From Chitinophagales bacterium (lineage in GTDB: Bacteria; Bacteroidota; Bacteroidia; Chitinophagales; Saprospiraceae): 64,000 bases of DNA. Below are positions 5,081 through 50,534 of the stretch, in pieces; the first letter of the stretch is position 1; each line of letters begins with the position of its first letter. A program made the position numbers and the translations under genes. Where the stretch lies: contig JBBQGV010000015.1 in the NCBI GenBank assembly GCA_038323375.1, positions 974 through 64,973 of the forward strand. The letters are read 5' to 3'. The notes under the pieces are model-generated. The model did not search any database and had not been told where the DNA came from. It was given only the letters and a program-made list of their open reading frames with translations.

Positions 5081-5686
5081 TTAATCGTTCAACCATTCGT
5101 CGTACAATGCGCGGAGTTGTTCGCGCAGTTCCAGCACTGCATAGCGTTTGCGTGTCAGCAAGGTGTTCACCGGCACGCCGGTTTTTTCGGCAATCGCTTT
5201 AAACGGAATGCCTTCCAGTTCGTGCCAGACAAAAACATCGCGTTGCGCTTCGGGCAGGGTGTCAAGGGCTTCTTCGAGGGCTTCCAGCAACGCTTCCCGG
5301 AAAAGCGTGGCTTCGGCATCGTTGAAATCCGGCGTTAACAAGCTGTCTAACAGGTACAAATCCGCGCGATCTTCAGAACCTTCTACCGTCGGCACCGTCA
5401 ATTCCTGCATCAGCACCGGCTTTTTCTTCCGGTAGCGGTCGGTGATCTTATTGCGGGCCACCGCAAACAACCAGGCCGCGAACTGCTCCACCGGTTTCAT
5501 CAGGCGCTCCATTTCTGACAACTCATAAAAAACATCCTGCACGATGTCTTCCGCATCTTCTAATCGCGGCACCCGGAGGCGCACAAAAGACAGGAGCCTG
5601 CCGCTTTCTTCGCGGAAGACCTCGCTGATTTTGCTGCGCCTTTCAGTGGCGTTGTCCGGTATTGCAGATGCTGTTTTCGACTCCAT
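5081..5686 (-). CDS. RNA polymerase ECF-type sigma-70 factor
   Basis: 201-aa ORF. Region 2 (DIVQDVFYEL...) and a region 4 helix-turn-helix (GIPFKAIAEKTGVPVNTLLTRKRYA). Confidence 0.85.
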   Translation of the reverse strand: MESKTASAIPDNATERRSKISEVFREESGRLLSFVRLRVPRLEDAEDIVQDVFYELSEMERLMKPVEQFAAWLFAVARNKITDRYRKKKPVLMQELTVPTVEGSEDRADLYLLDSLLTPDFNDAEATLFREALLEALEEALDTLPEAQRDVFVWHELEGIPFKAIAEKTGVPVNTLLTRKRYAVLELREQLRALYDEWLND

Positions 5687-5827
5687 ACAATTAGGGAGAC
5701 GAACGAGTGGTGGGGATATTTTAAAAATTGTGGTTATTTTTTAAAATCGGCTTTGGAAAAAACAGGCGCCATCCTGAAATCTATTCCAGAATAGCTCATG
5801 TAAAATTTACAACCAAATAATATCCAA

Positions 5828-6415
5828 TCAGTTGAGAATTATCTTTTTTAAAATTCGTTTTCCATTTGATTGAATGGTGAGGTGATAATTGCCACGGGCA
5901 ATGTCCCGAAGATCAAAAGCAAATTGGTTCTCGCCTTTAGATAAGATCAGGTTTTCACCTAACCGCTTTACTAATCTCCCTGTTCCATCGTAAAGATCAA
6001 TAGATGTTTTTTCTTCTTTTTGAACAAAGAAAGACAAGTAGATTGCATCTTTAGCAGGATTTGGGTAGAGTAGGAAGCTAGTGCCCTCATCCAAAACCGC
6101 ATAATTTTCTTGAGGAAAAATGATTCGTTTAACCGTAAATTCATCCGATCGTGCCTGTAATTGCCCATCATTGCCTTCGATTGGTTCCATGACTAAAGTG
6201 GCGGCAAAAACACCCTCGATGTATAATTGATCCCCAACTAATTCCCAATCAGCAGGCTCCGTTTCAGCCATATTGAAGAAATCCATCGGGCTTGCATAGG
6301 AGACCGCCAAGGTTGTCACATGTTCAGGCAAATTGTTGATCTGCGCGGCTTTGATGCCATCCAGAAAAAGGGACCCTTCTTTGATTTCGACATTGGGGTT
6401 CAAATTGTCGCCCAT
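5828..6415 (-). CDS. T9SS C-terminal-domain protein fragment without a signal peptide; possibly the 3' part of a nonsense-interrupted gene
   Basis: 195-aa ORF ending in a T9SS CTD (LLYPNPAKDAIYLSF...). It has no signal peptide. It is in the same frame as upstream ORF 6449-6658, separated only by a TAG at 6449-6451. Confidence 0.5.
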   Translation of the reverse strand: MGDNLNPNVEIKEGSLFLDGIKAAQINNLPEHVTTLAVSYASPMDFFNMAETEPADWELVGDQLYIEGVFAATLVMEPIEGNDGQLQARSDEFTVKRIIFPQENYAVLDEGTSFLLYPNPAKDAIYLSFFVQKEEKTSIDLYDGTGRLVKRLGENLILSKGENQFAFDLRDIARGNYHLTIQSNGKRILKKIILN

Positions 6416-8641: not shown

Positions 8642-10039
8642 ATGCGCACCAGATTTTTCCCGATCACCCTGCTGTTGTGGAGCCTGCTGACTCTGCTGAC
8701 AGCACAACTAAGCGCGCAACCTCAAAGCTTCAGCCTGAAACAGGCGGTGGAATATGGTTTGGCCAACCACAACTCTATCCGAAGCGCGCGCATGGACGTC
8801 CCTTATGCCGAAGCGGAAATCAAGGAATACAAAGCGATTGGAATGCCCAAATTGGAGGGCAACATCAGCTACCAGTATTTTCTTGAACTGCCCGTTTCTT
8901 TTTTGCCCGACTTCCTCACCCCAGCGGTGGAGAATACGCTGCTGAATTACGACCTGATCACCGAGGACCAACTGACGCCTTCTAACGGAGGCTTGTTCCC
9001 CGCGCAATTCGGTACCAACAACAGCCTATCGGCCAGCCTCAATTTCAGTGCGTTGATCTTCGACGGCGCTTATTTTGTCGGGTTGAAAGCCATAAAAGGC
9101 TTGCGCGAACTACGACAGGTGCAGATCGGCATCCCCGAACAGGATGTGGCTTACAACATCCGCAAAGCTTACCTTGCGGTGTTGGTCACCCGCGAAGGCA
9201 CGGCGTTGGTGAACAAAAACATCACCAATTTAGAAAAACTGCTTGGCGAAACCCGCGAAATCTACAAAAATGGTTTTGCGGAACTGCTGGATGTGGACCG
9301 GCTGGAATTGTCGCTTGCCAACCTGCAAACCGAGCAGGAAGTGCTGCAACGCCAGGAGCAAACAGCGATTACCCTGCTGAAGTTTCAAATGCAGTACCCC
9401 ATCAGCCAACCCCTGGAGTTGACAGATAAAATTGCAGATATGCAGATGGAAGTAGCCGACCCGGCACTGAGCGGCACCTACCTTTTCGACAACCGCGTCG
9501 AATACCAGGTACTCAAAAAAAGTTTTTACCTGAACGAGCTGAACATTGAACGCTTCCGCAAATCGTATTTCCCCTCGGTGGTAGGCTCGGCCTCTTACAG
9601 CCAGTCTTTGCAACGCAACAAACTATTCGACGGCGATGAAGCTGGCTTTTTCCCCACTTCCTTAATGGGTTTGCACATCAACGTTCCGATTTTTGATGGG
9701 TTCGACCGCAGGAGCAAGATCCAGAAAGCCTCGATTGACCGGGACAAAATTGGCCTGCAAATCAGAGACTTCGAACAAGTGATGGCTTTTCAGATCGAAT
9801 CGTCGCGCATTGCTTACCTCAATGCGAACGACCGCCTGAAAGCGCGGCAAAAAACCCTGGAACAGGCAGAACGCATCTTCAATACCACTCAAATTAAGTG
9901 GCGGGAAGGCGTGGGCTCCAGTTTTGAGGTCACCAATGCCGAGCGCGAGGTGTATACCGCGCAAGCCAACCTGCTGAATGCCTGGTACGACCTGGCAAAT
10001 GCAAAAATGGATCTGGAAAAGGCAATGGGCGTGAAGTAA
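8642..10039 (+). CDS. TolC-family outer-membrane efflux protein
   Basis: 465-aa ORF with a signal peptide and the duplicated coiled-coil/OEP repeat architecture. First gene of the efflux operon. Confidence 0.85.
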   Translation: MRTRFFPITLLLWSLLTLLTAQLSAQPQSFSLKQAVEYGLANHNSIRSARMDVPYAEAEIKEYKAIGMPKLEGNISYQYFLELPVSFLPDFLTPAVENTLLNYDLITEDQLTPSNGGLFPAQFGTNNSLSASLNFSALIFDGAYFVGLKAIKGLRELRQVQIGIPEQDVAYNIRKAYLAVLVTREGTALVNKNITNLEKLLGETREIYKNGFAELLDVDRLELSLANLQTEQEVLQRQEQTAITLLKFQMQYPISQPLELTDKIADMQMEVADPALSGTYLFDNRVEYQVLKKSFYLNELNIERFRKSYFPSVVGSASYSQSLQRNKLFDGDEAGFFPTSLMGLHINVPIFDGFDRRSKIQKASIDRDKIGLQIRDFEQVMAFQIESSRIAYLNANDRLKARQKTLEQAERIFNTTQIKWREGVGSSFEVTNAEREVYTAQANLLNAWYDLANAKMDLEKAMGVK

Positions 10040-22289: not shown

Positions 22290-23843
22290 ATGGACAAAAT
22301 CAAAATCCTGTGGGCAGACGACGAGATTGACCTGCTGAAACCTCAGTTGCTGTTTTTAGAAAAAAAAGGATACGAAGTCATAACCGTCACCAACGGTTTC
22401 GATGCGCTGGAAGAAGTGGAAAATATACACGACATTGATGTGGTTTTTCTGGACGAGAGTATGCCCGGGATTACCGGCCTGGAAACTTTAGTCAAAATCA
22501 AAGCCACGAATCCGCTGCTGCCCGTGGTGATGATCACCAAAAACGAAGCCGAGCACATCATGGAAGAAGCGCTGGGTTCCCAGATTTCCGACTACCTCAT
22601 CAAGCCCGTCAATCCGAATCAGATTTTGCTTACGCTGAAAAAAATCATTGACAACAAACGCTTGGTGCGCGAAAAAACCAGTTCCAACTACCAGCAGGAT
22701 TTTCGCCAGATTTTCATGCAAATCAACAGCGGGCTGAGCTTTGAGGAATGGGTAGACGTGTACCGGAAAATCATCAACTGGGAAATCAAAATTGACGAAT
22801 CGCAGTCGGTGGAAATGCGCGACATCCTGTCCAGTCAAAAGCAGGAAGCCAACAACGCTTTCAGCAAATTCATCGCCAAAAACTATATAGACTGGGTGCA
22901 AAAAGGCAATGGCCCCGTGATGTCGAACACGCTGTTGCGCAGCAAAGTGTTCCCGAAAATGAGCGACGACATCCCCACCGTGGTGCTGTTGTTGGACAAC
23001 CTGCGCTACGACCAGTGGAAAGCCATTGAGCCAACCATCACCGAATTGTTTCGGGTGGAAAAGGAAGACTATTTTTACAGCATTTTGCCTACTTCTACCC
23101 AATACAGCCGCAACTCAATCTTTGCTGGTCTGCTGCCGCTTGAAATCGAAAAACGCTACCCTGACTGGTGGAAAAACGACAACGACGAAGGCGGCAAAAA
23201 CCTGCATGAGCACGATTTGTTAGGGGAACAAATCAAGCGCACGTTTCGCAAAGAATTGCGCTTCGATTACGTCAAAATAACCACCGTGGCTCAGGCGCGG
23301 CAGCTTCAGGACAACATCTTCAACTACCTGCAGAGCAACTTGATGGTAATTGTTTACAACTTCATAGACATGCTTTCGCACGCCCGCACGGAAATGGAGG
23401 TCTTGAAAGAATTAGCCGGCGATGAAAAGGCGTACCGTTCGCTCACACGCTCTTGGTTTGTGAATTCTCCGCTGTGGGCAGCCCTGCAAAAGGCGGCAGA
23501 ACGCGACATCCAATTGGTCGTGCTCACCGACCACGGCACCATTCGCGTCAATACGCCGTCAAGGGTAGTTGGCGACCGGGAAACGACCACCAACCTACGG
23601 TATAAAGTTGGCCGCAACCTGCAATACGAGCGCCGCGACGTACTCGAAGTACGCGAGCCGGAAAAAGCAGGTCTGCCGCGCCCCAATGTGAGTTCGGCGT
23701 TTATTTTTGCCAAAGAGGATGCGTTTTTCCTCTATCCGAACAACTACAACCACTACCACAATTATTACAAAAACACATTCCAGCACGGCGGTATTTCGCT
23801 GGAGGAGATTATTTGTCCGGTTATTCATTTGAGAACAAAATAA
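22290..23843 (+). CDS. porX: PorX-type response regulator (CheY receiver + PglZ/alkaline-phosphatase-superfamily domain)
   Basis: 517-aa ORF. Receiver domain (ILWADDE...VVFLDESMPGITG...KP) followed by PglZ motifs (LLLDNLRYDQW, HGGISLEE). Length and architecture match T9SS PorX. Confidence 0.8.
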   Translation: MDKIKILWADDEIDLLKPQLLFLEKKGYEVITVTNGFDALEEVENIHDIDVVFLDESMPGITGLETLVKIKATNPLLPVVMITKNEAEHIMEEALGSQISDYLIKPVNPNQILLTLKKIIDNKRLVREKTSSNYQQDFRQIFMQINSGLSFEEWVDVYRKIINWEIKIDESQSVEMRDILSSQKQEANNAFSKFIAKNYIDWVQKGNGPVMSNTLLRSKVFPKMSDDIPTVVLLLDNLRYDQWKAIEPTITELFRVEKEDYFYSILPTSTQYSRNSIFAGLLPLEIEKRYPDWWKNDNDEGGKNLHEHDLLGEQIKRTFRKELRFDYVKITTVAQARQLQDNIFNYLQSNLMVIVYNFIDMLSHARTEMEVLKELAGDEKAYRSLTRSWFVNSPLWAALQKAAERDIQLVVLTDHGTIRVNTPSRVVGDRETTTNLRYKVGRNLQYERRDVLEVREPEKAGLPRPNVSSAFIFAKEDAFFLYPNNYNHYHNYYKNTFQHGGISLEEIICPVIHLRTK

Positions 23844-30876: not shown

Positions 30877-32721
30877 TTAAGTCAGCAAATACCCAAACTC
30901 CTGCAAACGGCGTTTCACAGCCGCATAATTCCCTTTGGGGATAATGACCATAAAGCCCTCTGCTTTGATGATCAATGGCTTAAGAACAGGGTCTTGCGCC
31001 ACTAACTGGATCAGAGCCTTGTTGTCGGGCGGTATTTGCAGTACTTTGGGTTCATCTACCTGCTCGAAGGGGTTGATCTTATGGATCATATCCTGAAAGA
31101 AGGCTTGCCAGTTGGGCGGCAGTTTTTCGCCGATGATTTGTTTGAACAGGGCAATTTTGCCTTCCAATTCCTTTTTCGACCGAATATTTTTGAGAAAAAT
31201 CTGGCTGTCGGTGCGAAACCGGTTGGCACCAAGCCGTTCGGTGTAAGGCTCCAGAATCGCAGCGGCAGAGGCATCGGAAGCATCGGTCATGATGAGCAGG
31301 GTATCGGGAGAAAGTATAATATGGGTATCGGAGGCGATGCCGGAACTGTCGTAAACCTTGGTGATCCCACAAACAAAATCACCGAGTTTGGTGCGCCGCA
31401 CGTAGCGCAACCCATCCCAGGAGGAGTAGCAATCGCGCCCCATGGTTTCCAGGCCAGGATGGTCGTAGGCAATGTCGCACAGGCCAAATGCTGCGAAGAG
31501 GAAAAAAGAACCGCGCAGGAAGGGAATATCAACCGCCAGGCCAATCTGAGCGGACGTAATAAAGTGCTTGTTATTATAGAAATTTACCTCCGGATCCGTC
31601 CGGTCTAAATATTCATAGTAGAGCTTGTTGGTAATGTAGTAATTCGCCATAGGCCGAATGTCAATCAGGTTGAACCGCACGAAGTGGCGGATATTCTCAA
31701 AAGGAACCCATTCGCCAGCAGGCAGTGCCGCCAGTAGGTTGCGTATTTCAAGCTCTTTATGTTTTGTCACATCGTAGTTTTCCACAGTGGCCATACCTTT
31801 GAGATCGGGTAGTACGAGTGGCGCAGAAGGGATCAATGTGGGGTATTTTTTTTCAAACAAATCCTGAATCATTTGCGGGGTGTCGGCTGCATTTTTCGTG
31901 CTATTGCCATAAACGGCAAAACCCGCCAACAAGGCCGTACGCAGGGTACGCATCTTTTTATCCGCAGCATCGGGGAAGAACTCCTGAAGGCTAAGGCTGC
32001 GGTTCATTTTGGGCAAACTGATATGTGTCGGGCGGTTTTTGGCGGTATATCCTATCTGCCCCTGTTGCTTGTATGACAGTACCCGGGGCCATTCGAGCAG
32101 AATATCGCGTTCACCGGTGGTATAGGTATGTTGAGTAGGTTCGGGGGCGGCTATCGGGCTTAGTTTTGCGTAGTCGGGCAGGTCATAATAGCCGGCCAGC
32201 AATTGGCGCAAGGCAGGCGGCAGGCCGAGATTGAGCTTAACAGGAGTCGCGTAATAATAACCATAGCTGTGGTTCATCCGTTCGTCATAAAGCAAGTTAA
32301 ATTGGGGCAGTATGATTTTCTTTTCTTCTATTCTGTCGTAATAGGTTTTATGGCGCTCTAGTGAATAAACTTTCACACCAAATCGCTTTTCGATCTCTAC
32401 ATCGTCCAATTGTTCTTCCCAAATCATTGTTTGCCATACTTTTTCAACGTCTTCTGGCAAAAACCGCAGAAAGGCCTCGTAAATTTTTCTTGAACCGAAT
32501 GGCAATGCACAAATCTTCGTCATTGGTTCTTTCGGAAGGGTTTTCGCGTTCGTCGCTAATTTTAGCAATTCTGCATCAGCCCCTTCAGCAATGAGCATAT
32601 CGGCGTACTTCGCTATGAATTTTTTAGCTAACCCCCAATACCGCGAAGTCAGATCATCTTTGGTGAAACTTCCCCCAAGGATAGCGACTACTGATGTTAA
32701 TTGCTTTGTAAATGCGTTCAT
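30877..32721 (-). CDS. hypothetical protein translationally coupled to the SNF2 helicase
   Basis: 614-aa ORF. Its start overlaps the SNF2 stop by 4 nt (ATGA). No family recognised and no SWIM CxCxnCxH motif seen. Confidence 0.6.
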   Translation of the reverse strand: MNAFTKQLTSVVAILGGSFTKDDLTSRYWGLAKKFIAKYADMLIAEGADAELLKLATNAKTLPKEPMTKICALPFGSRKIYEAFLRFLPEDVEKVWQTMIWEEQLDDVEIEKRFGVKVYSLERHKTYYDRIEEKKIILPQFNLLYDERMNHSYGYYYATPVKLNLGLPPALRQLLAGYYDLPDYAKLSPIAAPEPTQHTYTTGERDILLEWPRVLSYKQQGQIGYTAKNRPTHISLPKMNRSLSLQEFFPDAADKKMRTLRTALLAGFAVYGNSTKNAADTPQMIQDLFEKKYPTLIPSAPLVLPDLKGMATVENYDVTKHKELEIRNLLAALPAGEWVPFENIRHFVRFNLIDIRPMANYYITNKLYYEYLDRTDPEVNFYNNKHFITSAQIGLAVDIPFLRGSFFLFAAFGLCDIAYDHPGLETMGRDCYSSWDGLRYVRRTKLGDFVCGITKVYDSSGIASDTHIILSPDTLLIMTDASDASAAAILEPYTERLGANRFRTDSQIFLKNIRSKKELEGKIALFKQIIGEKLPPNWQAFFQDMIHKINPFEQVDEPKVLQIPPDNKALIQLVAQDPVLKPLIIKAEGFMVIIPKGNYAAVKRRLQEFGYLLT

Positions 32722-35700
32722 TTTCCGAGCAACAATTTAATGTCATCCTCTGAAAGCGCTTTCAAAGAAGCGCCATCAGCGGAAATGATGTTATCGAAGA
32801 GTTCTTTTTTGAGTTGTTGCAACTGCAGTATTTTTTCCTCGATACTGCCCTGTGCTATGAGCTTGTAAGCCAGCACTTTGTTTGTTTGGCCAATGCGGTG
32901 CGCCCGGTCTATGGCCTGATTTTCAGCAGCCACATTCCACCAGGGGTCATAAATAAAAATGGTGTCGGCAGCGGTGAGGTTAAGCCCTACCCCACCGGTT
33001 TTCAACGTCATTAAAAATACGCGGCAGTCGGGGTCGTTCTGGAAGCGATTGACGAGCGATTCGCGGTCGCGGGTAGCACCCGTCATGGACACATAGCCCA
33101 CCCCGGCATCATCCAAACGCGAAGAGATGCTCTCTATGGCCGCCAGGAAATTGACAAAAATAAGCGCTTTGTGCCCATTGGCAAGCGCGTCCATGAGTTG
33201 TTCTTCCAGCAGTTCCAGCTTGGCGCTCTCCACGCGGCCTTCGGTAAGCGCTTCCGGCACCGTGGCTATTTGTCGCAATTCGCTCAATGCCTGAAACACA
33301 AAAAACTGGGCACCTGCCACGCCTTTTTCTTTGATCTGCGTGTTGACCGCTTCTGCAAAGTACTGCCGGCGTTGCTCGTAGAGGCGTTTTTGCGCTTCGC
33401 CCATTTCCACATAAAGGGTTTGCTCTATTTTGTCGGGCAGGTCGGCCAACACGTCCCTTTTGAGGCGGCGCAGCACGAAGGGGTATATTTTGCGCCGCAG
33501 TTGGAGCGTGGCTGCTTTGTCGTTATGCTTTTGGATGGGCACAAGGTAGTCCTCATTGAACTGAGCAGCCGAGCCGAACATCGCAGGGTTGAGGAAGTGA
33601 AACAGCGCGTACAACTCACCGAGGTTGTTTTCAATGGGCGTGCCGCTGAGCGCTAACCTATATTTTCCGCGCAACAACAGCGCCGCTTTGGTGGTTTGGG
33701 TGGTCAGGTTTTTGATGTTCTGCGATTCGTCGAGGATGACGTAGTAAAACGGCTCCTCTTTGAGTTTTTCAATCTCGTTGCGCATGGTGGCGTACGTAGT
33801 AAACACGAGGTTGGAGCTGCGCATGGCCTCGTATTCCCGACTCAATCCGTAAAAAGTATACGTGCTGAGTTGTGGGGCAAACCGCTTCACCTCGCGCTCC
33901 CAGTTGAAAAGCAGACTGCGGGGCATCACGATGAGCGTAGGCGTTTTTTCTTTGGGATAAATGGTGGCCAGCAAAGCAATGGCTTGCAACGTTTTACCAA
34001 GCCCCATATCATCGGCTAAGCAGCCGCCGAGTTGTTGCTCGTGCAGGTAACTCAGCCATTTGAATCCCTGTTCCTGATAGGGACGGAGTTTGGCGTCTAA
34101 TTTTGGCAGTTTGGCCTTTTGGGCGCTGAGTCCGTTGAATCCCTCAAAAATATTGCGCGAACGCTCAAATACCTTGTCTTTGGCGGCCTCCTCCAAAAGT
34201 TCGTCCATGAGCGGCAAATCGAAAAAAGAGAGCTGTGCTTTTTTCCCCTTTTTTTTGAATAGCCGTTCTAAGCGCCGGACGTAAGCTTCATTAAGCAGGG
34301 CATGGGTGCCGTCATTGAGTTGAATGTAGCGGTTTTTGTTGTATTGAGCTAAGGCATCGAACAGGCTGATTTTTTCGCCCTCGAAATCCAATTCCACGCT
34401 GCCCTCGAAAAAGTCAATGGAGTGACTGAGGTTGAGCTGGAGTTTGGGCGAACGGGTATTAATCTTGTAAGACCGCAATTTTTCTGCGCCGAACACGGTG
34501 TAAGTCGCCAGCAGATTCGGCAATTCGGAATAAATAAAAGCGGCAGCAGTTTCTTCAGGAACGACGAAGAGGCTGCCGTCAAGCATGATCTCATCGCGGT
34601 CGTTTTTCCGCTTTTTAGGTTCGTGCTTGCGCAGCAAATGCAGGATATTGCCTGCGAGTACCTCGGTTGGTGCCTGATCTATGTACTTCACCGTGACCGT
34701 GAGCGCCATGTCGTTGATTTCGGCATAGCGGTAGAGGTCAAATTGCTCTAATGCGTTAAAATCTAAGTCGGCCAGGCTTTGGCCTACGCGCAGGTAGAGG
34801 GCATTGTCATCGCCTATTTTTTCAAAAATCAGACAAGGAGCCGCCTTGATTTTATCGTCGGGGCGCGACACAAGTTGGTAGCCCTGATACAAAAGGTCGA
34901 GGTTTTCGAGGTAAGAAAAAACCAACGCGAGAAACAAAGGCAGGTCGCGGCGCGCTACTTCCGTATTAAACCAGGAAATAGCTGCAAAATTACTGCCCGT
35001 TGGTGCCACTTCTATGAGTTGGTTGGCCGCTATAACAAACTGCTCGGTCACTACCCTGAAATCGTCCAGTTGATTTGCATTGTGTTGTAAGGACAGGCGC
35101 GAACGAAGAAACCCTTCGCGGTCGGAAGCCGTGAGATGCAGACGCAATTGGCCGGGCAAGTCCGAAAATTCCAGCGGTTTCAAAGCGGCATCCACCACAT
35201 TATCGCAATGACGCAGGGCTTCCAACAGGAATGGATGCTGTGCCAAATAGGTCTTGTCTGCCGGGTGTTCCCAGTTGATGACGAAGCTGTTCTTTTCCTG
35301 AATTTGCTCCAACACGCGCAGCACGTTCCGCACGGCACCACCATAATTGAGGTAGCTGGTTTCCACGGTGCGGCCTTTTGCATTCACCACCAGGAGAAAA
35401 GCACCAAACTCATCAAAATTGATCTGAAAAAACACCTCAGCATAAGCGCGCGACGTTTTTTGCTGAAAGGTGGTGCGCTTAAACCGCTCAAAAGAAAATG
35501 GCTGGCGATCCGAAACAACCGGAGGTGTTGCAGCAGGCATCGGGCTATCCGAACTGGCTGATCTCGCTACGGTCGTTTTTTTCTTTTCAGGCTTAACATC
35601 CGCAGCTTTTATTACACCACCGGGTTTTCTGCCCCGCTGCTTGAATAATGGCGCAGGTAATATCATTATGTCTCCTTTTTCAGCCAGCTCAATATCTGTC

Positions 35701-35933
35701 AGAAAAAGGTTCATTTCATCAAAATCATACCCATCCCGAAGACTCGCCCGGACAAAAGTCGTCGGCATTTTTTCCAGGGTTTCGAAATTCCATTTTATCG
35801 TGACAAGCGTTTCTTCTCCGGGCATTTCATCAATACGCGTGATGTAGCCCTGCCATCCGCTTAGGTCGTATTTCTCCATATCAGGGTCTTTAACGCCTGA
35901 TTTTATCCTGACAAAATCGTTAATTTTAAACAT
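32718..35933 (-). CDS. SNF2/Rad54-family helicase with a large N-terminal extension
   Basis: 1071-aa ORF. Motif I LADDMGLGKTLQ, motif II ILDESQNIKN, motif III LSGTPIENNLGELYALFHFLNP, motifs V/VI LKTGGVGLNLTAADTIFIYDPWWN...QAIDRAHRIGQ. Confidence 0.9.
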   Translation of the reverse strand: MFKINDFVRIKSGVKDPDMEKYDLSGWQGYITRIDEMPGEETLVTIKWNFETLEKMPTTFVRASLRDGYDFDEMNLFLTDIELAEKGDIMILPAPLFKQRGRKPGGVIKAADVKPEKKKTTVARSASSDSPMPAATPPVVSDRQPFSFERFKRTTFQQKTSRAYAEVFFQINFDEFGAFLLVVNAKGRTVETSYLNYGGAVRNVLRVLEQIQEKNSFVINWEHPADKTYLAQHPFLLEALRHCDNVVDAALKPLEFSDLPGQLRLHLTASDREGFLRSRLSLQHNANQLDDFRVVTEQFVIAANQLIEVAPTGSNFAAISWFNTEVARRDLPLFLALVFSYLENLDLLYQGYQLVSRPDDKIKAAPCLIFEKIGDDNALYLRVGQSLADLDFNALEQFDLYRYAEINDMALTVTVKYIDQAPTEVLAGNILHLLRKHEPKKRKNDRDEIMLDGSLFVVPEETAAAFIYSELPNLLATYTVFGAEKLRSYKINTRSPKLQLNLSHSIDFFEGSVELDFEGEKISLFDALAQYNKNRYIQLNDGTHALLNEAYVRRLERLFKKKGKKAQLSFFDLPLMDELLEEAAKDKVFERSRNIFEGFNGLSAQKAKLPKLDAKLRPYQEQGFKWLSYLHEQQLGGCLADDMGLGKTLQAIALLATIYPKEKTPTLIVMPRSLLFNWEREVKRFAPQLSTYTFYGLSREYEAMRSSNLVFTTYATMRNEIEKLKEEPFYYVILDESQNIKNLTTQTTKAALLLRGKYRLALSGTPIENNLGELYALFHFLNPAMFGSAAQFNEDYLVPIQKHNDKAATLQLRRKIYPFVLRRLKRDVLADLPDKIEQTLYVEMGEAQKRLYEQRRQYFAEAVNTQIKEKGVAGAQFFVFQALSELRQIATVPEALTEGRVESAKLELLEEQLMDALANGHKALIFVNFLAAIESISSRLDDAGVGYVSMTGATRDRESLVNRFQNDPDCRVFLMTLKTGGVGLNLTAADTIFIYDPWWNVAAENQAIDRAHRIGQTNKVLAYKLIAQGSIEEKILQLQQLKKELFDNIISADGASLKALSEDDIKLLLGK

Positions 35934-41535: not shown

Positions 41536-41733
41536 CTAAGCAAGATGACGGATATTTTTCGGAATTTTTAAAACAAATCCTCCAGCGTCAACACCTTTTC
41601 CACCAACCCGAGGCTGTGCAGGTTGTGTTTCAAGCCAAAAGTGGTCACCATCGTCAACATCAGGTGTTTTCGGGTTTGGGTGACCCTGTGAAAAACCCAC
41701 ATTTTGTTTCGTGAAGTTATTGGTGGCGGAATA

Positions 41734-41780
41734 GCGGGTTACGTGTCGGACACTTTGAAAGTGTCCGACACGTAACCCGC
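41734..41780 (-). terminator. long perfect hairpin immediately after the stop of the 191-aa gene
   Basis: GCGGGTTACGTGTCGGACACTT-TGA-AAGTGTCCGACACGTAACCCGC, a stem of about 22 bp, 3 nt downstream of the TGA at 41784-41786. There is no obvious U-tract. Confidence 0.55.
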
Positions 41781-41783
41781 TAT

Positions 41784-42359
41784 TCAACGCGCAAGGTTCT
41801 TGATCTGCTCTTTCAGTTCATAAGCCTGCACTGCCGTTCGCCGGAGAACGCGGTTTTCTCTCAAGACCTCCAGACTTGCTTCCATGCGCTCCGTAGAAAG
41901 CCCTTCCGGGAAAATTTGCCGAAAGCTTTGCTGCACCGCTTCCGTCGTAAAAGCCTTCCCCGGTAATTTGGAAATGGCATAAATCACTTGCGCTTCCTGA
42001 TCCGTGAACTGAATTTTCAGTTTGGGATAAAAATCAATCAATAACATGACGAAGCCGTAGATGATCTTTTTCACCGTTTCATCAAACAGCGCAATGCCCG
42101 CGTATTGGCCGATGAACTTCAGGATCTCTTCGGTGGAAAGCCGCGCAATATTGGTTAGTTTAAATGACTCGGCGCTGTGTTTGCCAGAGGAGTCCTGCTC
42201 CTGCCTGATAGAACGCGTTTCTTTGCTTTCGGCGATGGGGCGTGGAACAAGCTGAATGTTTTCGTGTAAGATGTCGAGCGTGGCTTCATCCAGCGCCATG
42301 CCGTGCTTTTCCAATGCGGCTGTAAGGTAAGCCGCCAAAATGTCTCTTTGATTTTCCAT
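41784..42359 (-). CDS. hypothetical 191-aa protein, last gene of the Roc-CHAT module
   Basis: It starts 13 nt after the stop of the 957-aa gene. It is helical, with a possible C-terminal winged-helix (LEVLRENRVLRR). No family recognised. Confidence 0.6.
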   Translation of the reverse strand: MENQRDILAAYLTAALEKHGMALDEATLDILHENIQLVPRPIAESKETRSIRQEQDSSGKHSAESFKLTNIARLSTEEILKFIGQYAGIALFDETVKKIIYGFVMLLIDFYPKLKIQFTDQEAQVIYAISKLPGKAFTTEAVQQSFRQIFPEGLSTERMEASLEVLRENRVLRRTAVQAYELKEQIKNLAR

Positions 42360-42372
42360 GATCCTGCGTTTT

Positions 42373-45216
42373 TTATTGAGGGTAGATGCGCTGGCCGTTG
42401 TAGTAGGCTTCGATTAGCTTGGGAATATCCTTATCGGATAGGTTTGCCCGGCTTATCCCCCGCCTAATTGACTGTTCGAGGCTTTTATTTTTAACTAAAT
42501 TCCGATAAACCCCGGCTGCAAAAATACGCGCTGTTTCGGAAAATATCTCTTTGGTGGTACCAATGGTAAAAATACCAACCTTGCTGATAGCTACCGCTTG
42601 TTCGCGGCTGTGACAGGCGTTGAGAAATACCAACTTGAGTTGAGGCAAGTCTTCTTTGAAGTTGCGAAAAAGGACTTCCAGTTGCTCGGATGACAGGACT
42701 TCTTTTCCATTTTTTCCATTACTGTGCAGCACTAACCCCGCAGGTTGCTTGATGATGCCTTCGGGATCCATGTCTCCCTCCTCCTGCCCATGTCCGCAAA
42801 AGTGTAAAATAGACGGCTCATGACGCTCAATTGCATCGTGCATATCACTTAGACTTGCCTGTTCACATATCTCTATACAAAACTCCCCTTCCCCTTGAAC
42901 GCTATCTTTAAGGCTGCTCCTGATGGATTCGCTCTCGATCTCCCAACTTATTAGTTTTTCCGTTGGATTGGCTTGCAAAAACAATAATGTCACTTTCTCC
43001 TGCCCAAATTCCAGTGGGGGAATGGGTATGGATAAAGACTGTTCAGCCCCCAGCTTTTCCACCCCCAATTTCTGAATTAAGCGCTCGGTTTGGGCTTGGT
43101 GTGCTTCTTTTGGAAGCTCCAATTTACCCTGATCCCGGCGTCCCAAAAATATTTTCAGATCTTCAACGGCCACCAGTGTGTCATTTTCGGCGGGTATCCG
43201 GTCTTGTTGCCAATTTTTCAACTTGGACATATTTACATAATCCTGACCATTGAGACTCACCCACTCTTGCACAGCTTCACCTTGCAGTTCTTCGATTGTG
43301 TTGCGGATTTTATCCATCAACCCCAGGTTATGCTTGTCGCAAAGGATATTGATGTCGTAGGCGTGCCTGCCACGATGAGTAGCGCGCTGCACGGTTACCA
43401 TCGCATAGTGCCCGGATTCTTTGACGACAATGCCATGTTGCCAGATGTCTTTGGTATCGGCTAATGACTGCGCTCTGACAATAAACCGCTGCATGGTGCC
43501 CTGATGCAGGAAATCGTGCCGGTATTGTATATACAGCATTTTCGACAAGCCCTGTACTACCTCAACAATGGAAGGCTCATCTTTCGGCAACAGTTGTGGT
43601 GCTATAAACTGCCGTTCTGCCAGAGGAACTTGGCGGTATTTATCTTCTTCCTTCTGTTCAGTAACTTCAAAACAAAGTTCGCAACTGATCATGAAGCTGA
43701 TAAAAAGTTCCTGTTCTGCCGGCGACGGCTGTTTTTTTGACCATATTTCCTGTAAGTTAGCACCTGAAAAACGGCCTTTGAGCGTATCCCGCAGGTAATG
43801 ATACTGCAACTTATTATTCCGGTTAAACACAGCATAAACCGCCTCAATAGCCCAGCTTTGATCCAGCATAACGGCGTTGCCAAAATAACCTTCCCGATAA
43901 AATACCACCCCGGTTTGTGCGAGCCATTTGAGCACATCCATTGGGTGTTCGATATGGTAATCTCCTGCAATGTCAAAATACTCATCCAAAGGCAGGGCTT
44001 TAGTCCCGGATCGCAACAGATCGCGCAGATGTTGTCTAAGGTTAGCCCAGGTTAAAGGCAGTTGTTTTTCGATACCCAGCCGTCGTTCAATGGCTTCCTT
44101 AACCGTAAACAGCAGCTTATTGCAGCCGTTGTTTCTTTTATCTGATATGAAAGAGTCTATCTGAAGAAAATCCATAGGTTTGTATCGCTGATCCAAAGCG
44201 TATTCGTCCGGGTGGCGGCTATTGTCTGCCTGGCTTTTGGTTTTTACGACAATTACGGGACTGTTACCACCCTGATGACGGATATAATGCAGCCAATAGT
44301 CTAATGAGAAATTCTCGTATTGACGTTCTTCGCCATCCTCTTGAATGGGACTCTCAGGATTTTGGCGCGTCTCCTCATCCCATAGAGCCAGATACACCGC
44401 ATTGACCTGCATAAACAGCCGGTGAGTAGCATGGTAGATGTCCTGCCCGCCAAAGTCCCAAAGATTCAGAATGAACGGAAAATCCGAAGGCTGTTCGCGA
44501 GGATATTGCTCCAGCACCACGCCATGAGTGGACAAATGGCGCTGCTCAAAGGTCTCATACACTAAGCGCTCTACCAGACAACTCTTCCCTACGCCTCCGT
44601 TACCCACCAGCAGTACTTTAAATTCCTTGTTTTCAGTCTCTCCATTGCCCAACTCCTGCAGAAAGCGTTGCATAAAAGGCAAACTGCTACCACTCACATC
44701 AGCGGCCTGCCTTTTAGCGCTGGTGAGTGGATTGCCTTTGAGAAAAAATTGTACCAATTTGGGAAAGCGAACCAGCAAATGGGCCGAAAATTCATTCAGT
44801 TGATTGTCACTGAGATCCAGGTGGCGCAGTTGAGCCAATTGCCCCACCAGTATAAAAGTCTTTAGTTTATTTCTGCTCGCATCCAACCAGCGCAGCCTGT
44901 CAAAGCCTGCGGGGAACTTCAGTTCGCCCTCCAGGCCGCTGTCGCTCACATCTAAGTGTTCCAGCGCGGGCAGCGCTGCCTGAAATTCCAGTTTTTTAAG
45001 CTGCTCATTGTTGCCAAGATTGAGGTATTGCAAATCCGGTAGTGCCGGCAAACTCAATTCCCCCACATCCAGCTTCGTGGCGCAAATACCAATGACCTCC
45101 CTCGCCTTGTTACAGCAAAAGGCATTCGGCGCAAAAAATTGCCGCAGCGCCGTCAAATCCGACTGCTCCTCAAAACTGACCCCAAAAAGGGTTTTCAAAA
45201 ATTGTTCTGGTTCCAT
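42373..45216 (-). CDS. LRR-Roc(GTPase)-COR protein with a C-terminal CHAT/caspase-like protease domain
   Basis: LRRs (LQYLNLGNNEQL, LEHLDVSDSGL, LRWLDASRNKL, LRHLDLSDNQL). Roc G1 LLVGNGGVGKS, G3 LWDFGGQ, G4-like VVKTKSQAD. A long COR-like middle region. C-terminal His/Cys dyad context ILHFCGHG ... LVFLNACHS. The ATG at 45216 is preferred; the ORF track extends to 45246. Confidence 0.8.
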   Translation of the reverse strand: MEPEQFLKTLFGVSFEEQSDLTALRQFFAPNAFCCNKAREVIGICATKLDVGELSLPALPDLQYLNLGNNEQLKKLEFQAALPALEHLDVSDSGLEGELKFPAGFDRLRWLDASRNKLKTFILVGQLAQLRHLDLSDNQLNEFSAHLLVRFPKLVQFFLKGNPLTSAKRQAADVSGSSLPFMQRFLQELGNGETENKEFKVLLVGNGGVGKSCLVERLVYETFEQRHLSTHGVVLEQYPREQPSDFPFILNLWDFGGQDIYHATHRLFMQVNAVYLALWDEETRQNPESPIQEDGEERQYENFSLDYWLHYIRHQGGNSPVIVVKTKSQADNSRHPDEYALDQRYKPMDFLQIDSFISDKRNNGCNKLLFTVKEAIERRLGIEKQLPLTWANLRQHLRDLLRSGTKALPLDEYFDIAGDYHIEHPMDVLKWLAQTGVVFYREGYFGNAVMLDQSWAIEAVYAVFNRNNKLQYHYLRDTLKGRFSGANLQEIWSKKQPSPAEQELFISFMISCELCFEVTEQKEEDKYRQVPLAERQFIAPQLLPKDEPSIVEVVQGLSKMLYIQYRHDFLHQGTMQRFIVRAQSLADTKDIWQHGIVVKESGHYAMVTVQRATHRGRHAYDINILCDKHNLGLMDKIRNTIEELQGEAVQEWVSLNGQDYVNMSKLKNWQQDRIPAENDTLVAVEDLKIFLGRRDQGKLELPKEAHQAQTERLIQKLGVEKLGAEQSLSIPIPPLEFGQEKVTLLFLQANPTEKLISWEIESESIRSSLKDSVQGEGEFCIEICEQASLSDMHDAIERHEPSILHFCGHGQEEGDMDPEGIIKQPAGLVLHSNGKNGKEVLSSEQLEVLFRNFKEDLPQLKLVFLNACHSREQAVAISKVGIFTIGTTKEIFSETARIFAAGVYRNLVKNKSLEQSIRRGISRANLSDKDIPKLIEAYYNGQRIYPQ

Positions 45217-45217
45217 A

Positions 45218-45486
45218 CGCTTTGTTTCGCGGGCTTCGTTTCGCACGCTTCGTTTCGCACGCTTTGTTTCGCACGCTTTGTTTCGCGGGCTTCAGTCCGC
45301 TTTGTTCCACACGCTTTGTTTCGCGGGCTTCAGTCCGCTTTGTTTCGCACGCTTTGTTTCGCGGGCTTTGTTTCGCGGGCTTCAGTCCGCTTTGTTTCGC
45401 ACGCTTCGTTTCGCACGCTTTGTTTCGCGGGCTTCAGTCCGCTTTGTTTCGCACGCTTCGTTTCGCACGCTTCAGTCCGCTTTGTT
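45218..45486. repeat. degenerate 12-14-nt tandem array built from REP-2 half-sites (GCTTYGTTTCGCRS / GCTTCAGTCCGC), minus orientation
   Basis: About 20 consecutive units begin 2 nt upstream of the Roc-CHAT start codon. Confidence 0.8.
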
Positions 45487-45580
45487 ACCCCCACAGTTCA
45501 ACTGTTCATTCATATATATCATTAGGTAGTTCATATAGCCAGGCTGTAGTGTGGATAGCCTACAAAATTTTCTTTTCTTT

Positions 45581-45835
45581 TGACAGCGGACTAAAGCCCG
45601 CGAAACAAAGGAAACAAAGCACACGAAGCGAACCCGTGAAATAAACGCTTTACGCTTTTGACAGCGGACTAAAGCCCGCGAAACAAAGCACACGAAGCGA
45701 ACCCGTGAAATAAACGCTTTACGCTTTTGACAGCGGACTAAAGCCCGCGAAACAAAGGAAACAAAGCACACGAAGCAAACCCGTGAAATAAATGCTTTAC
45801 GCTTTTGACAGCGGACTAAAGCCCGCGAAACAAAG
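45581..45835. repeat. tandem 78/69/78-nt repeats plus a partial unit, each containing GCGGACTAAAGCCCGCGAAAC (REP-2, plus orientation)
   Basis: Units start at 45581, 45659, 45728 and 45806. The 9-nt length difference is a GAAACAAAG duplication. The array is inverted relative to 45218-45486. Confidence 0.85.
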
Positions 45836-45892
45836 CCGCGACTCCCCGCGACACAAAAAAATAAAGGGTAAAAGGGTAAAAGTGACCAAGGG

Positions 45893-46636
45893 TTAGTACC
45901 GAGCCAGGCGAAAACCGATATTGAGGCTCCTGTTAACAGCATTGAAGAGGAAGTAGCGGTAGGACACCCGACAGAAGTCATCGTTGATGTTCCAGGACCC
46001 GCCACGAACCACGCGGCCAGCGCCATTGCTCTCTGCCCAGGCGCTGCCGTCCTGTGGCGCCTTTTTGTAATCATCCTGCCAATGATCCGCACACCATTCC
46101 CATACGTTGCCGCTCATGTCGTACAAACACAGTTCGTTGGGCAATTTCAGTCCGACGGGCTTTGTGGCACGGTGGCTGTTTTGCCTGAACCAACCCACCT
46201 CTTTCAACTGGTGGCTGCCCGCGTAAGGAAAGCCCAGACTCTGTCGCCCGCCCCGGGCTGCGTATTCCCATTGTGCTTCCGTTGGCAGGCGAAACCGGCG
46301 GCCATCCTGCTCATTTAGCTGCTGGATGTTGGGCAGGGCATTGAGTTTTTCCAGAAAAAGCCGGGTGTCGTCCCATGAAATCTGCTCGACGGGCAGGTCA
46401 GCACCTTTAAAGTGGGAAGGATTGTCCTGCATCACGCCCTGCCATAGTGCCTGGGTCACCGGGTATTGGCCGATCTCAAAAGATGCGATCTTGACGGGGT
46501 GGATGGGATTTTCATTGCGATATGCATCACGGCCCATCATAAAATCGCCGCCCTCCACGGTTACCATCGGAATGGATAAGCCATCGGCTATGGGGATATT
46601 CAGGATAGGAACAAGCGGTTTGTTTTGCACGAGCAC
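45893..46636 (-). CDS. formylglycine-generating-enzyme (SUMF1/FGE-sulfatase) family protein without a signal peptide
   Basis: 247-aa ORF. MVTVEGGDFMMG, RLPTEAQWEYAARGG, GNVWEWCAD, RVVRGGSW. GTG start at 46636, or a downstream ATG. Confidence 0.85.
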   Translation of the reverse strand: MLVQNKPLVPILNIPIADGLSIPMVTVEGGDFMMGRDAYRNENPIHPVKIASFEIGQYPVTQALWQGVMQDNPSHFKGADLPVEQISWDDTRLFLEKLNALPNIQQLNEQDGRRFRLPTEAQWEYAARGGRQSLGFPYAGSHQLKEVGWFRQNSHRATKPVGLKLPNELCLYDMSGNVWEWCADHWQDDYKKAPQDGSAWAESNGAGRVVRGGSWNINDDFCRVSYRYFLFNAVNRSLNIGFRLARY

Positions 46637-46689: not shown

Positions 46690-46806
46690 TTAATGTCTGT
46701 CTTTATAGTCCGATAGCTGCGTTGTGCGAAGGCTCAAAACTGGTCATTTACACGAGTAACCTACGGCGGACTGAAGCCCGCGAAACAAAGCACACGCGAA
46801 ACGAAA
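46690..46806. repeat. REP-1 half-copy (46690-46740) followed by a REP-2 half-site (46764-46806)
   Basis: TAATGTCTGTCTTTATAGTCCGATAGCTGCGTTGTG and GGCGGACTGAAGCCCGCGAAACAAAGCACACG. Confidence 0.55.
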
Positions 46807-48886: not shown

Positions 48887-49220
48887 TAACTTATTTTTTT
48901 TGATGCACCGGCGGCGGCCACGCCGATTTGGTGCTGCCCTGAAACATGGTGCAAGTGCGCGTAAAACTGAGCCGCTGAGACAGCAACCACGGCCTCGTGC
49001 TACCGGGCGAAGGCAAAGGCAATTTTGAACCGTTGCCCTCCGTAGCAAGCGGCATCCGCCTGAAAGGAGAAGTGTGGGCAGTGAAAATGGCCAGGCTTGG
49101 CTCCCGCGTACTCTTGCGTTTATCTTCTAATCATCAAAAGTCTCAAAAAGTCGCCTCAAAAAGCAACAATTCAGAAAATAAGGCGTTTTGTTGCGAATAA
49201 TTCGCAAAAACCCTCTTATT

Positions 49221-50137
49221 ATGCTGCTTCAATTTTCAGTTCGGAATTTTAGAACCTTCAAAGACAAAGCCTCTTTGAGCCTGATTGCTTCTAATTATGA
49301 CAAAGAGACTAGAGCAAGGGATTAGTTAGGAATAATGCCTTGTTACTCTCCGTTGCTGCGCAATTTAATGATAACATTTCCGAAAACGTTATTACCTGGT
49401 TTAACAGCTTAAAAACCATTTCAGGGCTAAGGGAAGAAGAGTATCAAGGCTATACAATGAATAGAACTCAAGATTCCCAATACAAAGATAAAATACTTGA
49501 TTTGCTTAAGTTCGCAGACATAGGGATTCATGATATAAAGCTCAAAATGCTTAATATTGATCAACTCCCCAAAGATATGCCCGATGAATTAAAACAATTA
49601 TTAACCAAAATAGCCAGAGAAAATGAAACTGAAATTTTTTCTGATATTTTAACTTCCCATAAAAAATTTGATGGATCAAAAAAATATGTCGGAGATACTA
49701 TATTGTCTTTAATTGACGATGAATCCTCCGGTACACGAAAATTTTTTGCTTTAACAGGGCTTATTTTAGACTCTATTGAAAACGGGCATACCTTAATTGT
49801 TGATGAACTGGATGCCAAACTGCATCCAAATTTAGTCTGTGAGATTGTTGCTCTTTTCAACTCTGGAAAATCCAATGCCAATAATGCACAACTCATTTTC
49901 AATACGCACGATACGAATCTCTTAAGCTCAGGTTTATTTAGGAGAGACCAAATCTGGTTTACAGAAAAAGATAAATTTGGAGCAGCAAAGTTGTATTCCA
50001 TGGCAGATTTTAAATCTGATGAGGTAAGGAAAAATGAAGCATTTGAGGAAACCTACCTTAGAGGAAAATATGGAGCTGTTCCTTTTTTGACGCACTTTGA
50101 TGAATTGACACTACAGAAACCTATTCCTGCAAAATGA
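49221..50137 (+). pseudogene. AAA_21-type ATPase (RloA/abortive-infection-like) with an internal deletion removing the Walker A region
   Basis: 49221-49325 encodes MLLQFSVRNFRTFKDKASLSLIASNYDKE... and then stops. ORF 49340-50137 carries the distal half (DESSGTRKFF, Walker B LIVDELDAKLHP, IFNTHD, RRDQIWFTEKD). No GxxGxGKS is present. Confidence 0.65.
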
Positions 50138-50534
50138 AAAACAAACAAGCAGATCAAATTGCGGCCAAAAAAAGACATCATGTTCAATTAAAAGAGAAAC
50201 GAAGAAGCGAACCTTTGCTGGAAAGAAATGGATCATTCTCCATCTTGAGGATCATTAGGGAGGCGGGATGAACAGAAGTGATTATGATGCTAAAATCAAC
50301 AACCTTTTAAGACCTTATAACCTTGTTTACGATGGAAAGAATAGTAAAATCATCACAGATGATTTTTTTGATCTGCTTGATGGCGTAGATGAAAAAACGA
50401 ATAAAGAGAGAAAGCTTTTAGCAATCAAGCGGGCTAAAAGGACTTATGATTTGTTTGATCATACAAATCCGGCAAGTGAAGAATCCTCAACGACTGTATT
50501 CAGGCTCGTTGAAGAATTATTGAAATATATTTAA
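50134..50534 (+). pseudogene. RloB-like (Toprim-type partner) remnant
   Basis: The start overlaps the ATPase stop (ATGA). A KWIILHLEDH-like motif is out of frame. Only a C-terminal 88-aa ORF (50268-50534) remains intact. Confidence 0.4.

Follow-up and report, generated by a model that had tools for sequence, protein, structure and literature searches.

A three-gene module was characterized in a stretch of 64,000 nucleotides (nt; hereafter, the window) of contig JBBQGV010000015.1 from a Saprospiraceae bacterium. It encodes a small protein with the fold of formylglycine-generating enzymes (FGE), whose C-terminus is hypervariable in the manner of a target of diversity-generating retroelements (DGRs); a large ROCO protein, in which leucine-rich repeats (LRR) and a Roc-COR GTPase core are joined to a CHAT peptidase domain; and a protein of 191 amino acids (aa). 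The domain identities and their conserved catalytic residues, the DGR-type hypervariation, and the recurrent linkage of the genes were all observed and are described below. On balance, and with guarded confidence, we favor the reading that the whole is a conflict system, directed against invaders or serving programmed death, in which a DGR-diversified receptor would act on the ROCO switch-protease and the latter on the small protein. As part of this reading, the window would hold a reduced version of a system that occurs in Saprospiraceae and also in other Bacteroidota. The related loci that were compared with the window are termed L001–L018, and ROCO residues are numbered according to the 947-aa product that starts at ATG unless the 957-aa numbering is stated.

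A first-pass annotation, made from the sequence alone, had placed three open reading frames (ORFs) on the minus strand and the smallest 13 nt after the ROCO gene. Both were borne out, and the public record holds the FGE-like product:

45893..46636, minus strand: FGE-like gene; the product on the public record (P0258) starts from GTG at 46630 and has 245 aa (45893..46630).
42373..45216, minus strand: ROCO gene, 947 aa when read from ATG; the alternative start, GTG at 45246, gives 957 aa (42373..45246).
41784..42359, minus strand: gene of the 191-aa small protein, which starts 13 nt past the ROCO stop.

The 245-aa protein encoded upstream matched the Pfam family FGE-sulfatase (PF03781, E 3e-51). 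Its best match in the PDB was 2y3c, the DGR variable protein TvpA of Treponema denticola (E 6e-33); true FGEs matched the same protein at 5e-17 to 1e-10 only. The first-pass annotation had regarded the FGE domain as a generic ligand-sensing module, a view that gave way here to that of a TvpA-like DGR variable protein with a hypervariable C-terminus. TvpA is a surface lipoprotein, whereas the window FGE protein has no signal sequence: as noted earlier, a signal peptide was not found, and the approximately 20 residues that precede the FGE domain contain neither a hydrophobic core nor a lipobox. In the alignment with the FGEs of S. coelicolor and T. curvata, 'LCHDSYC' aligned to 'NINDDFC', in which the first catalytic Cys was absent; its position was occupied by a DGR-variable Ile, Ser, Tyr, or Phe. 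A role as a sulfatase-maturing enzyme was rejected, since the Cys pair of the CxxxxC motif is incomplete and TvpA ranked far ahead of genuine FGEs. We likewise give almost no weight to the explanation of the protein as a common formylglycine-generating or SUMF1/EgtB-type enzyme whose function has nothing to do with the ROCO protein. In its favor are the name of the Pfam family and the label 'SUMF1/EgtB/PvdO family nonheme iron enzyme' given by NCBI, but the replacement of the Cys at a hypervariable position and TvpA as the closest structure argue otherwise, as do the adjacency of FGE and ROCO-CHAT genes in all nine loci compared (see below) and the lack of a sulfatase, none of which was seen among the neighbors scanned, in agreement with the first-pass annotation.

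The hypervariable part of the gene was mapped as follows:

45895..46012, minus strand: variable repeat (VR) of the FGE gene; its hypervariable core spans 45919..45991 (73 nt).

In a 90%-identity cluster of ten FGE proteins from different samples, residues 1–213 were ~100% identical, and residues 214–238 of 245 fell into at least five dissimilar-looking alleles. VR alleles were compared through this protein cluster; the ROCO-bearing contigs of the 99%-identical strains (L007, L013, and L014) begin inside the repeat array described below and carry no FGE gene. The window and L015 differed at 24 positions within the 73-nt core and at 5 positions across 2.8 kb of flank. Among three alleles (window, L015, and L016), 31 of the 73 VR columns varied versus 5 columns in the other ~640 nt of the gene, and the variation affected mostly the first two positions of NNC/NNT codons. 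The 2844-nt ROCO gene carried 2–3 substitutions in the same lineage. When the alleles were compared with the template repeat (TR) of the sister locus L003, which is not that of the window's own genome, mismatches in the window VR fell on 14/33 adenine sites and 4/82 non-adenine sites (Fisher p = 3e-6). The corresponding values were 16/33 and 4/82 for the L015 VR (p = 1.8e-7) and 18/33 and 4/82 for the L016 VR (p = 8e-9). The window FGE is accordingly a hypervariable protein of the DGR type and no formylglycine-generating enzyme. Since the VRs differ among strains whose flanks are 99.8% identical, the diversification is younger than the strain split.

No reverse transcriptase (RT), Avd, or TR was detected in the 64-kb window by tblastn with the L005 RT and Avd or by blastn with the VR and TR; a TR matching the window VR would be expected to read GTGGTTCGTGGCGGGTCCTG…AAC-rich…GGTACT. 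Young diversification together with the absence of a DGR from the window points either to a DGR located at another place in the genome or to one that was lost very recently. In our model, the window FGE would be served by a copy elsewhere in the genome, or its diversification would have recently stopped. L005 (5785–18546) contains an intact DGR in the order FGE, FGE, Avd, RT with TR, FGE, ROCO-CHAT, small protein, and six FGE genes, and nine FGE-fold target genes thus flank the ROCO-CHAT and small-protein pair on both sides. Its TR lies at 8877..8994, and seven VRs differ from the TR at 13–17 adenines and at 0–1 other positions. One of the L005 targets, FGE4, reads out of frame through its own VR. 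In L003, the nearest sister lineage, a decayed DGR lies between two FGE genes (5477–5925); it retains an Avd fragment (aa 28–101, minus strand), of the RT only the C-terminal 51 aa, and an AAC-rich TR that is still intact, from which the two local VRs differ almost only at adenines. An RT adjoined the module in L005, L008, and L009, with Avd and TR also present there, and in Lewinella persica (PMC8195603). The loci form a decay series in which the element is intact (L005), decayed (L003), or absent (window).

At the place where L003 and L005 carry Avd-RT-TR, the window carries repeats:

45217..45836, no strand assigned: tandem and inverted repeat arrays between the FGE and ROCO genes, with the core CGCGAAACA (Tandem Repeats Finder (TRF) and motif map).

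The array units measure 14, 38, and 52 nt just upstream of the ROCO start and 69 and 78 nt, in inverted orientation, downstream of the FGE gene, and in each unit a T-rich tail comes after a small GC hairpin. An extra copy of the core was found at 46766–46791, upstream of the FGE gene. The core also flanks module genes in L003 and was not found in L001, L002, L005, or L006. Four independent assemblies are interrupted within the array or at its margin, and a further short contig, the fifth case, stops just before it; the window assembly may have collapsed across the repeats. The arrays may serve as terminators or regulatory sites, or they may be a scar left by the loss of a DGR. An improbable alternative is that the window copy is an inactive relic, whose cis DGR was deleted and replaced by repeats, whose FGE is an orphaned former target, and whose linkage is historical. 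The missing RT, Avd, and TR agree with such a course, as do the intermediate state of L003, a 3-nt indel in the window VR, and an internal deletion of 403 nt in the neighboring AbiLi gene. However, the three ORFs are intact with their catalytic residues in place, the VR alleles differ between strains with nearly identical flanks, and DGRs with remote targets are documented (PMC10907252; PMC7159879).

The second gene encodes the ROCO protein. As the first-pass annotation had proposed, Pfam found LRR, Roc, COR, and CHAT in one protein, all above the curated cut-offs:

44725..45033, minus strand: LRR, aa ~62–164 (~72–174 in 957-aa numbering); Pfam LRR_8/LRR_4.
44233..44619, minus strand: Roc GTPase, aa ~200–328 (210–338 in 957-aa numbering); Pfam E 6e-22.
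43204..44058, minus strand: COR-A and COR-B, aa ~387–671; Pfam E 3e-23 (397–553) and 7.5e-12 (569–681), both in 957-aa numbering.
42454..42948, minus strand: CHAT/caspase-like domain, aa ~757–921; Pfam 784–929 (957-aa numbering), E 2e-10.
42790–42792, minus strand: catalytic His809 of the CHAT dyad.
42613–42615, minus strand: catalytic Cys868 of the CHAT dyad.

The Roc domain is directly followed by COR, the arrangement of ROCO proteins, and CHAT (PF12770) scored 41 bits against a cut-off of 24 bits over profile positions 117–261 of 289. In the PDB search, aa 190–606 matched the CtRoco structures 3dpu, 6hlu, and 8r4b (E 6e-28 to 5e-27), and further matches were MbRoco2 (4wnr, 7e-21) and LRRK2 (1e-10). 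The closest solved CHAT sequence was 8tl0_A, 'CHAT domain-containing protein' (E 2.5e-8), which we take to be a SAVED-CHAT filament. In the alignment of 55 CHAT-bearing homologues, the P-loop residues G205, G210, and K211 and the DFGGQ residues D254, F255, G257, and Q258 were kept in all 55. The GTPase motifs pointed out in the first pass were therefore confirmed for the P-loop and DFGGQ and largely for the G4 'TK' (50/55 and 47/55), but the G4 Asp was not conserved. The proposed His/Cys dyad also held, with H809 in 54 and C868 in 53 of the homologues. By these domain and motif criteria, the large protein is a ROCO protein with a CHAT peptidase domain, for which GTP binding and proteolysis are predicted.

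A total of 512 ROCO homologues were found at E < 1e-10, many of them annotated as 'COR domain-containing protein', and the same LRR-Roc-COR core occurred with CHAT, TIR (PF13676/PF01582), or PF19964 C-termini. LRR, GTPase, and COR with interchangeable effectors among homologues is the composition of the AP-GTPase conflict systems compared below. The first-pass label of the protein as similar to nucleotide-binding LRR receptors (NLRs) and signal transduction ATPases bearing numerous domains (STAND) did not stand. No NACHT, NB-ARC, or other STAND family passed the threshold in Pfam, the best signal of this kind being AAA_16 (E 0.03; 15 bits against a cut-off of 32.6 bits), and the switch is a Ras-like GTPase. 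The resemblance to NLRs is a functional analogy only. In the window's subfamily, the LRR diverges no faster than CHAT or COR-B. A direct-sensor model, in which the LRR would be the fastest-evolving domain, was rejected on this ground; the ordinary divergence of the LRR fits the docking of a constant partner rather than that of an invader.

The linkage of the genes was investigated in nine independent ROCO-CHAT loci (window, L001, L002, L003, L005, L006, L008, L009, and L011). The co-localization suggested by the first-pass annotation was observed throughout for the FGE gene, which stood beside ROCO-CHAT in 9/9 loci in one to nine adjacent copies; the small-protein gene was present in 7/9 and an adjacent RT in 3/9. 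The small gene followed ROCO-CHAT after 2–40 nt in six loci and was frameshifted in the low-coverage locus L008. One of the small proteins in these seven loci, a family member with only 27% identity, was again encoded after an LRR-Roc-COR-CHAT gene and before an FGE gene. Genome and metagenome scans with the small-protein alignment yielded two loci each, and tblastn of distant members against plasmids gave pHALHY01 of Haliscomenobacter hydrossis as the sole match, where the homologue WP_013768897.1 is encoded 30 nt after a Peptidase_C14-NACHT-WD40 gene. In every context examined, on a ROCO or a NACHT scaffold, the small-protein gene lay directly after a caspase-type protease gene. Because the family follows a NACHT-borne caspase in pHALHY01, the small protein tracks the caspase-type protease and not the ROCO scaffold.

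The same region of pHALHY01 (L017/L018, NC_015511.1 11185–34089) encodes a CHAT protein, a MoxR ATPase, a 2048-aa protein with four FGE domains, the caspase-NACHT-WD40 protein, the homologue of the small protein, and a further two proteins of NACHT-WD40 type. At ~10 kb from this cluster of conflict genes lies a pair encoding SLATT and a nucleotidyltransferase.

The 191-aa protein itself matched no family in Pfam or PADLOC. A word-indexed search returned 11 relatives only, and an exhaustive profile search returned 128 cluster representatives, which were nearly all stand-alone proteins of 180–200 aa. One sequence from the profile search, P0234 (410 aa, four repeats), was set aside because it looks like an unrelated repetitive secreted protein. 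An AlphaFold2 (AF2) model based on a multiple sequence alignment of 80 sequences reached a predicted local distance difference test score (pLDDT) of 92.9 and a predicted template modeling score (pTM) of 0.75, and it replaced an earlier poor model from 10 sequences (pLDDT 64.7). The predicted fold consists of two N-terminal helices, a loop, a β-hairpin (50–66), a helical hairpin (76–114), and a winged helix (120–189). The β-hairpin holds the best-conserved motif of the family, ExxExR…DxxGKxxAxSxKLxN, of which R49 and N70 were invariant among 38 members. Foldseek matched the winged helix to Fur, the DpnI wH, and the Cdc6 WH (2–3 Å over 65–74 residues) and found nothing for residues 1–115 in the PDB and BFVD. 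In almost every member, the most hydrophobic segment was the helical hairpin at aa ~75–112, which was transmembrane (TM)-like in 26 of 80 members, the window's own protein not being one of them. By analogy with known protease-effector pairs, we consider the protein most likely to be a dedicated substrate of the CHAT protease, and it is treated below as the candidate for this role.

A regulatory function of the small protein seems unlikely to us but has to be weighed. In such a scheme, the winged helix would bind DNA, possibly the CGCGAAACA arrays, or would act on the protease as an antitoxin-like inhibitor. Once CHAT had cut the small protein, the repression or inhibition would end, and the protease would kill via other cellular targets. 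The scheme would account for the DNA-binding-type winged helix being the only known-structure match of the confident model, for the locus-specific repeat arrays with a conserved core that flank the module genes in the window and L003, and for a central hairpin that is not TM-grade in the window's subclade. It would leave unexplained that the repeats are absent from L001, L002, and L005, where the small protein is kept, and that many family members have a clearly TM-like central hairpin. The strongest conservation, moreover, lies in the β-hairpin motif and not in the recognition helix of the winged helix.

Here, we propose a model for the conflict system by combining the above results. One or more stand-alone FGE-fold receptors, probably cytoplasmic, would have their C-terminal ligand-binding surface rewritten by a DGR, and a receptor variant would bind an invader molecule. 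The ROCO protein would read the loaded receptor, probably via its LRR, and the GTP switch of Roc-COR, working in the way established for CtRoco and LRRK2, would release the CHAT protease. CHAT would then cut the small protein within its conserved aa 40–75, with the invariant Arg49 as the candidate P1 residue. The freed hydrophobic helical hairpin and/or winged helix would damage the cell or arrest its growth. The cleavage step was modeled on EACC1 and other protease-effector pairs (PMC12642450). A role in defense, including defense against phages, is plausible from the gene content: a check of the neighborhood found defense-type genes nearby, namely an AbiLi/AbiLii remnant and a DpdE/ZorD-like helicase.

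Several points weigh against this model. The PADLOC check that the first-pass annotation had suggested (PADLOC-DB v2) gave 0 families for all three proteins at E ≤ 0.1. The physical link between the FGE and the LRR is predicted, and for every member of this kind of system the interpretation is computational. L006 and L009 are ROCO-CHAT/FGE loci without the small protein, which is thus not obligatory. The central hairpin shows no more than moderate hydrophobicity (1.34) in the subclade to which the window's protein belongs, and the C-terminal winged helix of the predicted fold suggests DNA binding instead. An EAD-like adaptor shared by the small-protein and ROCO-CHAT families was rejected, as the hhalign probability was 0.1%. 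Furthermore, the window contains no RT, Avd, or TR, its VR allele carries 3 inserted nt that are lacking in the other alleles and in the template of the sister locus, and this copy may be decaying.

It is quite improbable, in our estimation, that the module is not anti-phage but serves kin (self/non-self) recognition or developmental death in filamentous Saprospiraceae, similar to fungal HET/NLR incompatibility, with the DGR supplying allelic diversity. Near-clonal strains do hold different VR alleles, such systems are enriched in multicellular bacteria (PMC8195603, PMC10907252), and the lack of a PADLOC match fits as well. However, a receptor without a secretion signal would meet intracellular ligands only, the neighbors are of anti-phage type (AbiL, DpdE/ZorD-like), and conflict genes of the NACHT, SLATT, and MoxR kinds surround the family member of H. 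hydrossis.

The conflict-system model can be extended, tentatively and with considerable doubt. The 191-aa protein would found a new family of caspase-activated death effectors, in which cleavage at the β-hairpin sets free a helical hairpin that acts on membranes. In that case, the module would amount to antigen-receptor immunity in a minimal bacterial form, leading from soluble lectin-fold receptors, hypermutated via an RT encoded elsewhere, to an LRRK2/DAPK-type GTPase and on to a caspase.

As for the arrangement of the module, the spacing between the FGE and ROCO genes is 646–676 nt and is filled by tandem repeats and terminator-like hairpins (TRF; consensus scan), and because of this content the FGE gene is probably a transcription unit separate from ROCO. 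Two hairpins were recorded at the ends of the genes:

45835..45852, minus strand: GC-rich terminator-like hairpin ~40 nt 3' of the FGE stop, found by the consensus scan; putative terminator or DGR target-site hairpin.
41717..41806, no strand assigned: long hairpin that overlaps the 3' end and stop codon of the 191-aa gene, with sub-threshold Rfam matches of hairpin type (miRNA-precursor-like) only.

The latter is probably the terminator of the transcription unit formed by the ROCO and small-protein genes. An Rfam search over 40–48 kb of the window gave nothing above the threshold and hairpin-type matches only.

The nearest relatives of the module proteins came from Saprospiraceae metagenome-assembled genomes. 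Outside the module and its defense-type neighbors, the window carries ordinary chromosomal genes (DnaJ, AcrB, an amidase, and a TonB-type receptor). Among the defense-type neighbors, the AbiLi-type AAA ATPase gene (49188–50137, plus strand) is a pseudogene, whose internal deletion of ~403 nt removes aa 46–177; an intact copy of 450 aa is present in L015 (PADLOC AbiLi, E 9e-100). It is followed by an 88-aa RloB/AbiLii-like fragment (50268–50534, plus strand). The SNF2 helicase of 1071 aa (32718–35933, minus strand) strongly matched DpdE (1e-129) and ZorD (7e-104). Its gene overlaps by 4 nt with a gene for a 614-aa protein (30877–32721, minus strand) that matches no Pfam or PADLOC family, and the two may be another defense-type pair. 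A response-regulator receiver domain fused to PglZ is encoded at 22290–23843 (plus strand). PglZ is chiefly familiar from BREX; the fusion is probably a signaling protein.

The module bears on two questions. One is whether DGR-hypermutated lectin-fold proteins act as intracellular antigen receptors, which was proposed in 2020–2024 by computational and metagenomic work. The other is the purpose of prokaryotic ROCO GTPases, the bacterial relatives of the Parkinson's protein LRRK2 and the death kinase DAPK1. With a single gene each for the receptor, the switch-protease, and the candidate substrate, it offers a compact test bed, for which sister strains supply natural receptor alleles. H. hydrossis is a cultivable relative with a small-protein homologue beside a caspase-NACHT protein.

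Systems of this kind have already been predicted computationally. Kaur, Iyer, Burroughs & Aravind (eLife 2021; PMC8195603, Fig. 6D and source data) described, in purely computational work, prokaryotic AP-GTPase conflict systems that consist of LRR, GTPase, and COR plus at least 24 alternative C-terminal domains, caspase included, and they interpreted domains of the FGE fold, termed FGS, as invader sensors that DGRs diversify. In the source data of that study, the LRR-AP-GTPase-COR-caspase architecture string occurs 36 times; also listed are the operon 'ROCO-caspase → ? → FGS → ? → RVT → ? → FGS' in Lewinella persica, and the Saprospiraceae neighborhood 'FGS → ? → RVT → LRR+AP-GTPase+COR'. The first-pass annotation overstated the novelty: our literature search turned up no experiments on bacterial ROCO-caspases or on immunity fed by DGRs, but the architecture and operon had been predicted (PMC8195603). 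The window shares with the AP-GTPase systems the LRR, the Roc-type GTPase, COR, and a variable C-terminal effector, here caspase/CHAT, and paralogues carry TIR or EAD. In contrast, the gene after ROCO-caspase was left as '?' in that study, stand-alone FGS arrays around ROCO-caspase do not appear in its text, and the window copy has no RT.

Doré et al. (PNAS 2024; PMC10907252) reported that conflict-system sensors are diversified by DGRs in situ in multicellular bacteria. Like these sensors and TvpA, the window FGE has a C-type-lectin/FGE fold, and its C-terminal VR is made up of AAY-type codons and shows adenine-specific substitutions relative to a TR; association of the targets with CHAT, TIR, and NTPase conflict genes, and targets remote from the RT, are likewise known there. 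However, the VR domain in that study is usually fused to STAND, vWA, kinase, or CHAT domains, whereas here it is a small stand-alone protein beside a ROCO-caspase, and GTPase/ROCO partners are unmentioned (0 occurrences of 'GTPase').

The LRR-Roc-COR core is shared with CtRoco, LRRK2, and DAPK1 (E 6e-28 to CtRoco), and GTP-driven conformational and oligomeric switching is established as the way in which this core works (PMC11052575). CtRoco, for which no biological role is known, lacks an effector domain, and LRRK2 and DAPK1 carry kinases, whereas the effector here is a caspase-like protease.

With respect to the small protein, a precedent is EACC1 (Evans et al. 2025 preprint, PMC12642450), where cleavage turns small non-enzymatic proteins encoded beside caspase-like proteases into effectors that form pores, and EACC1-protease modules are also linked to DGRs (PMC12642450). 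As in such protease-effector modules (EACC1, Pepco, MBL, and α/β-hydrolase; bacterial gasdermins; SAVED-CHAT/PCaspase), the small gene adjoins a caspase-like protease on varied sensor scaffolds. Unlike those effectors, the 191-aa protein showed no detectable similarity in sequence or structure (no Pfam or PADLOC match; winged helix only in Foldseek). It is also longer than EACC1 (191 aa versus ~115 aa) and ends in a winged helix, and its cleavage is proposed by analogy. Compared with the earlier catalogues, what is new here is that the window FGE is DGR-type hypervariable without a cis retroelement and that the loci form a decay series. In addition, the unnamed '?' gene of those catalogues now has a family, a confidently predicted fold, and a protease-linked context.

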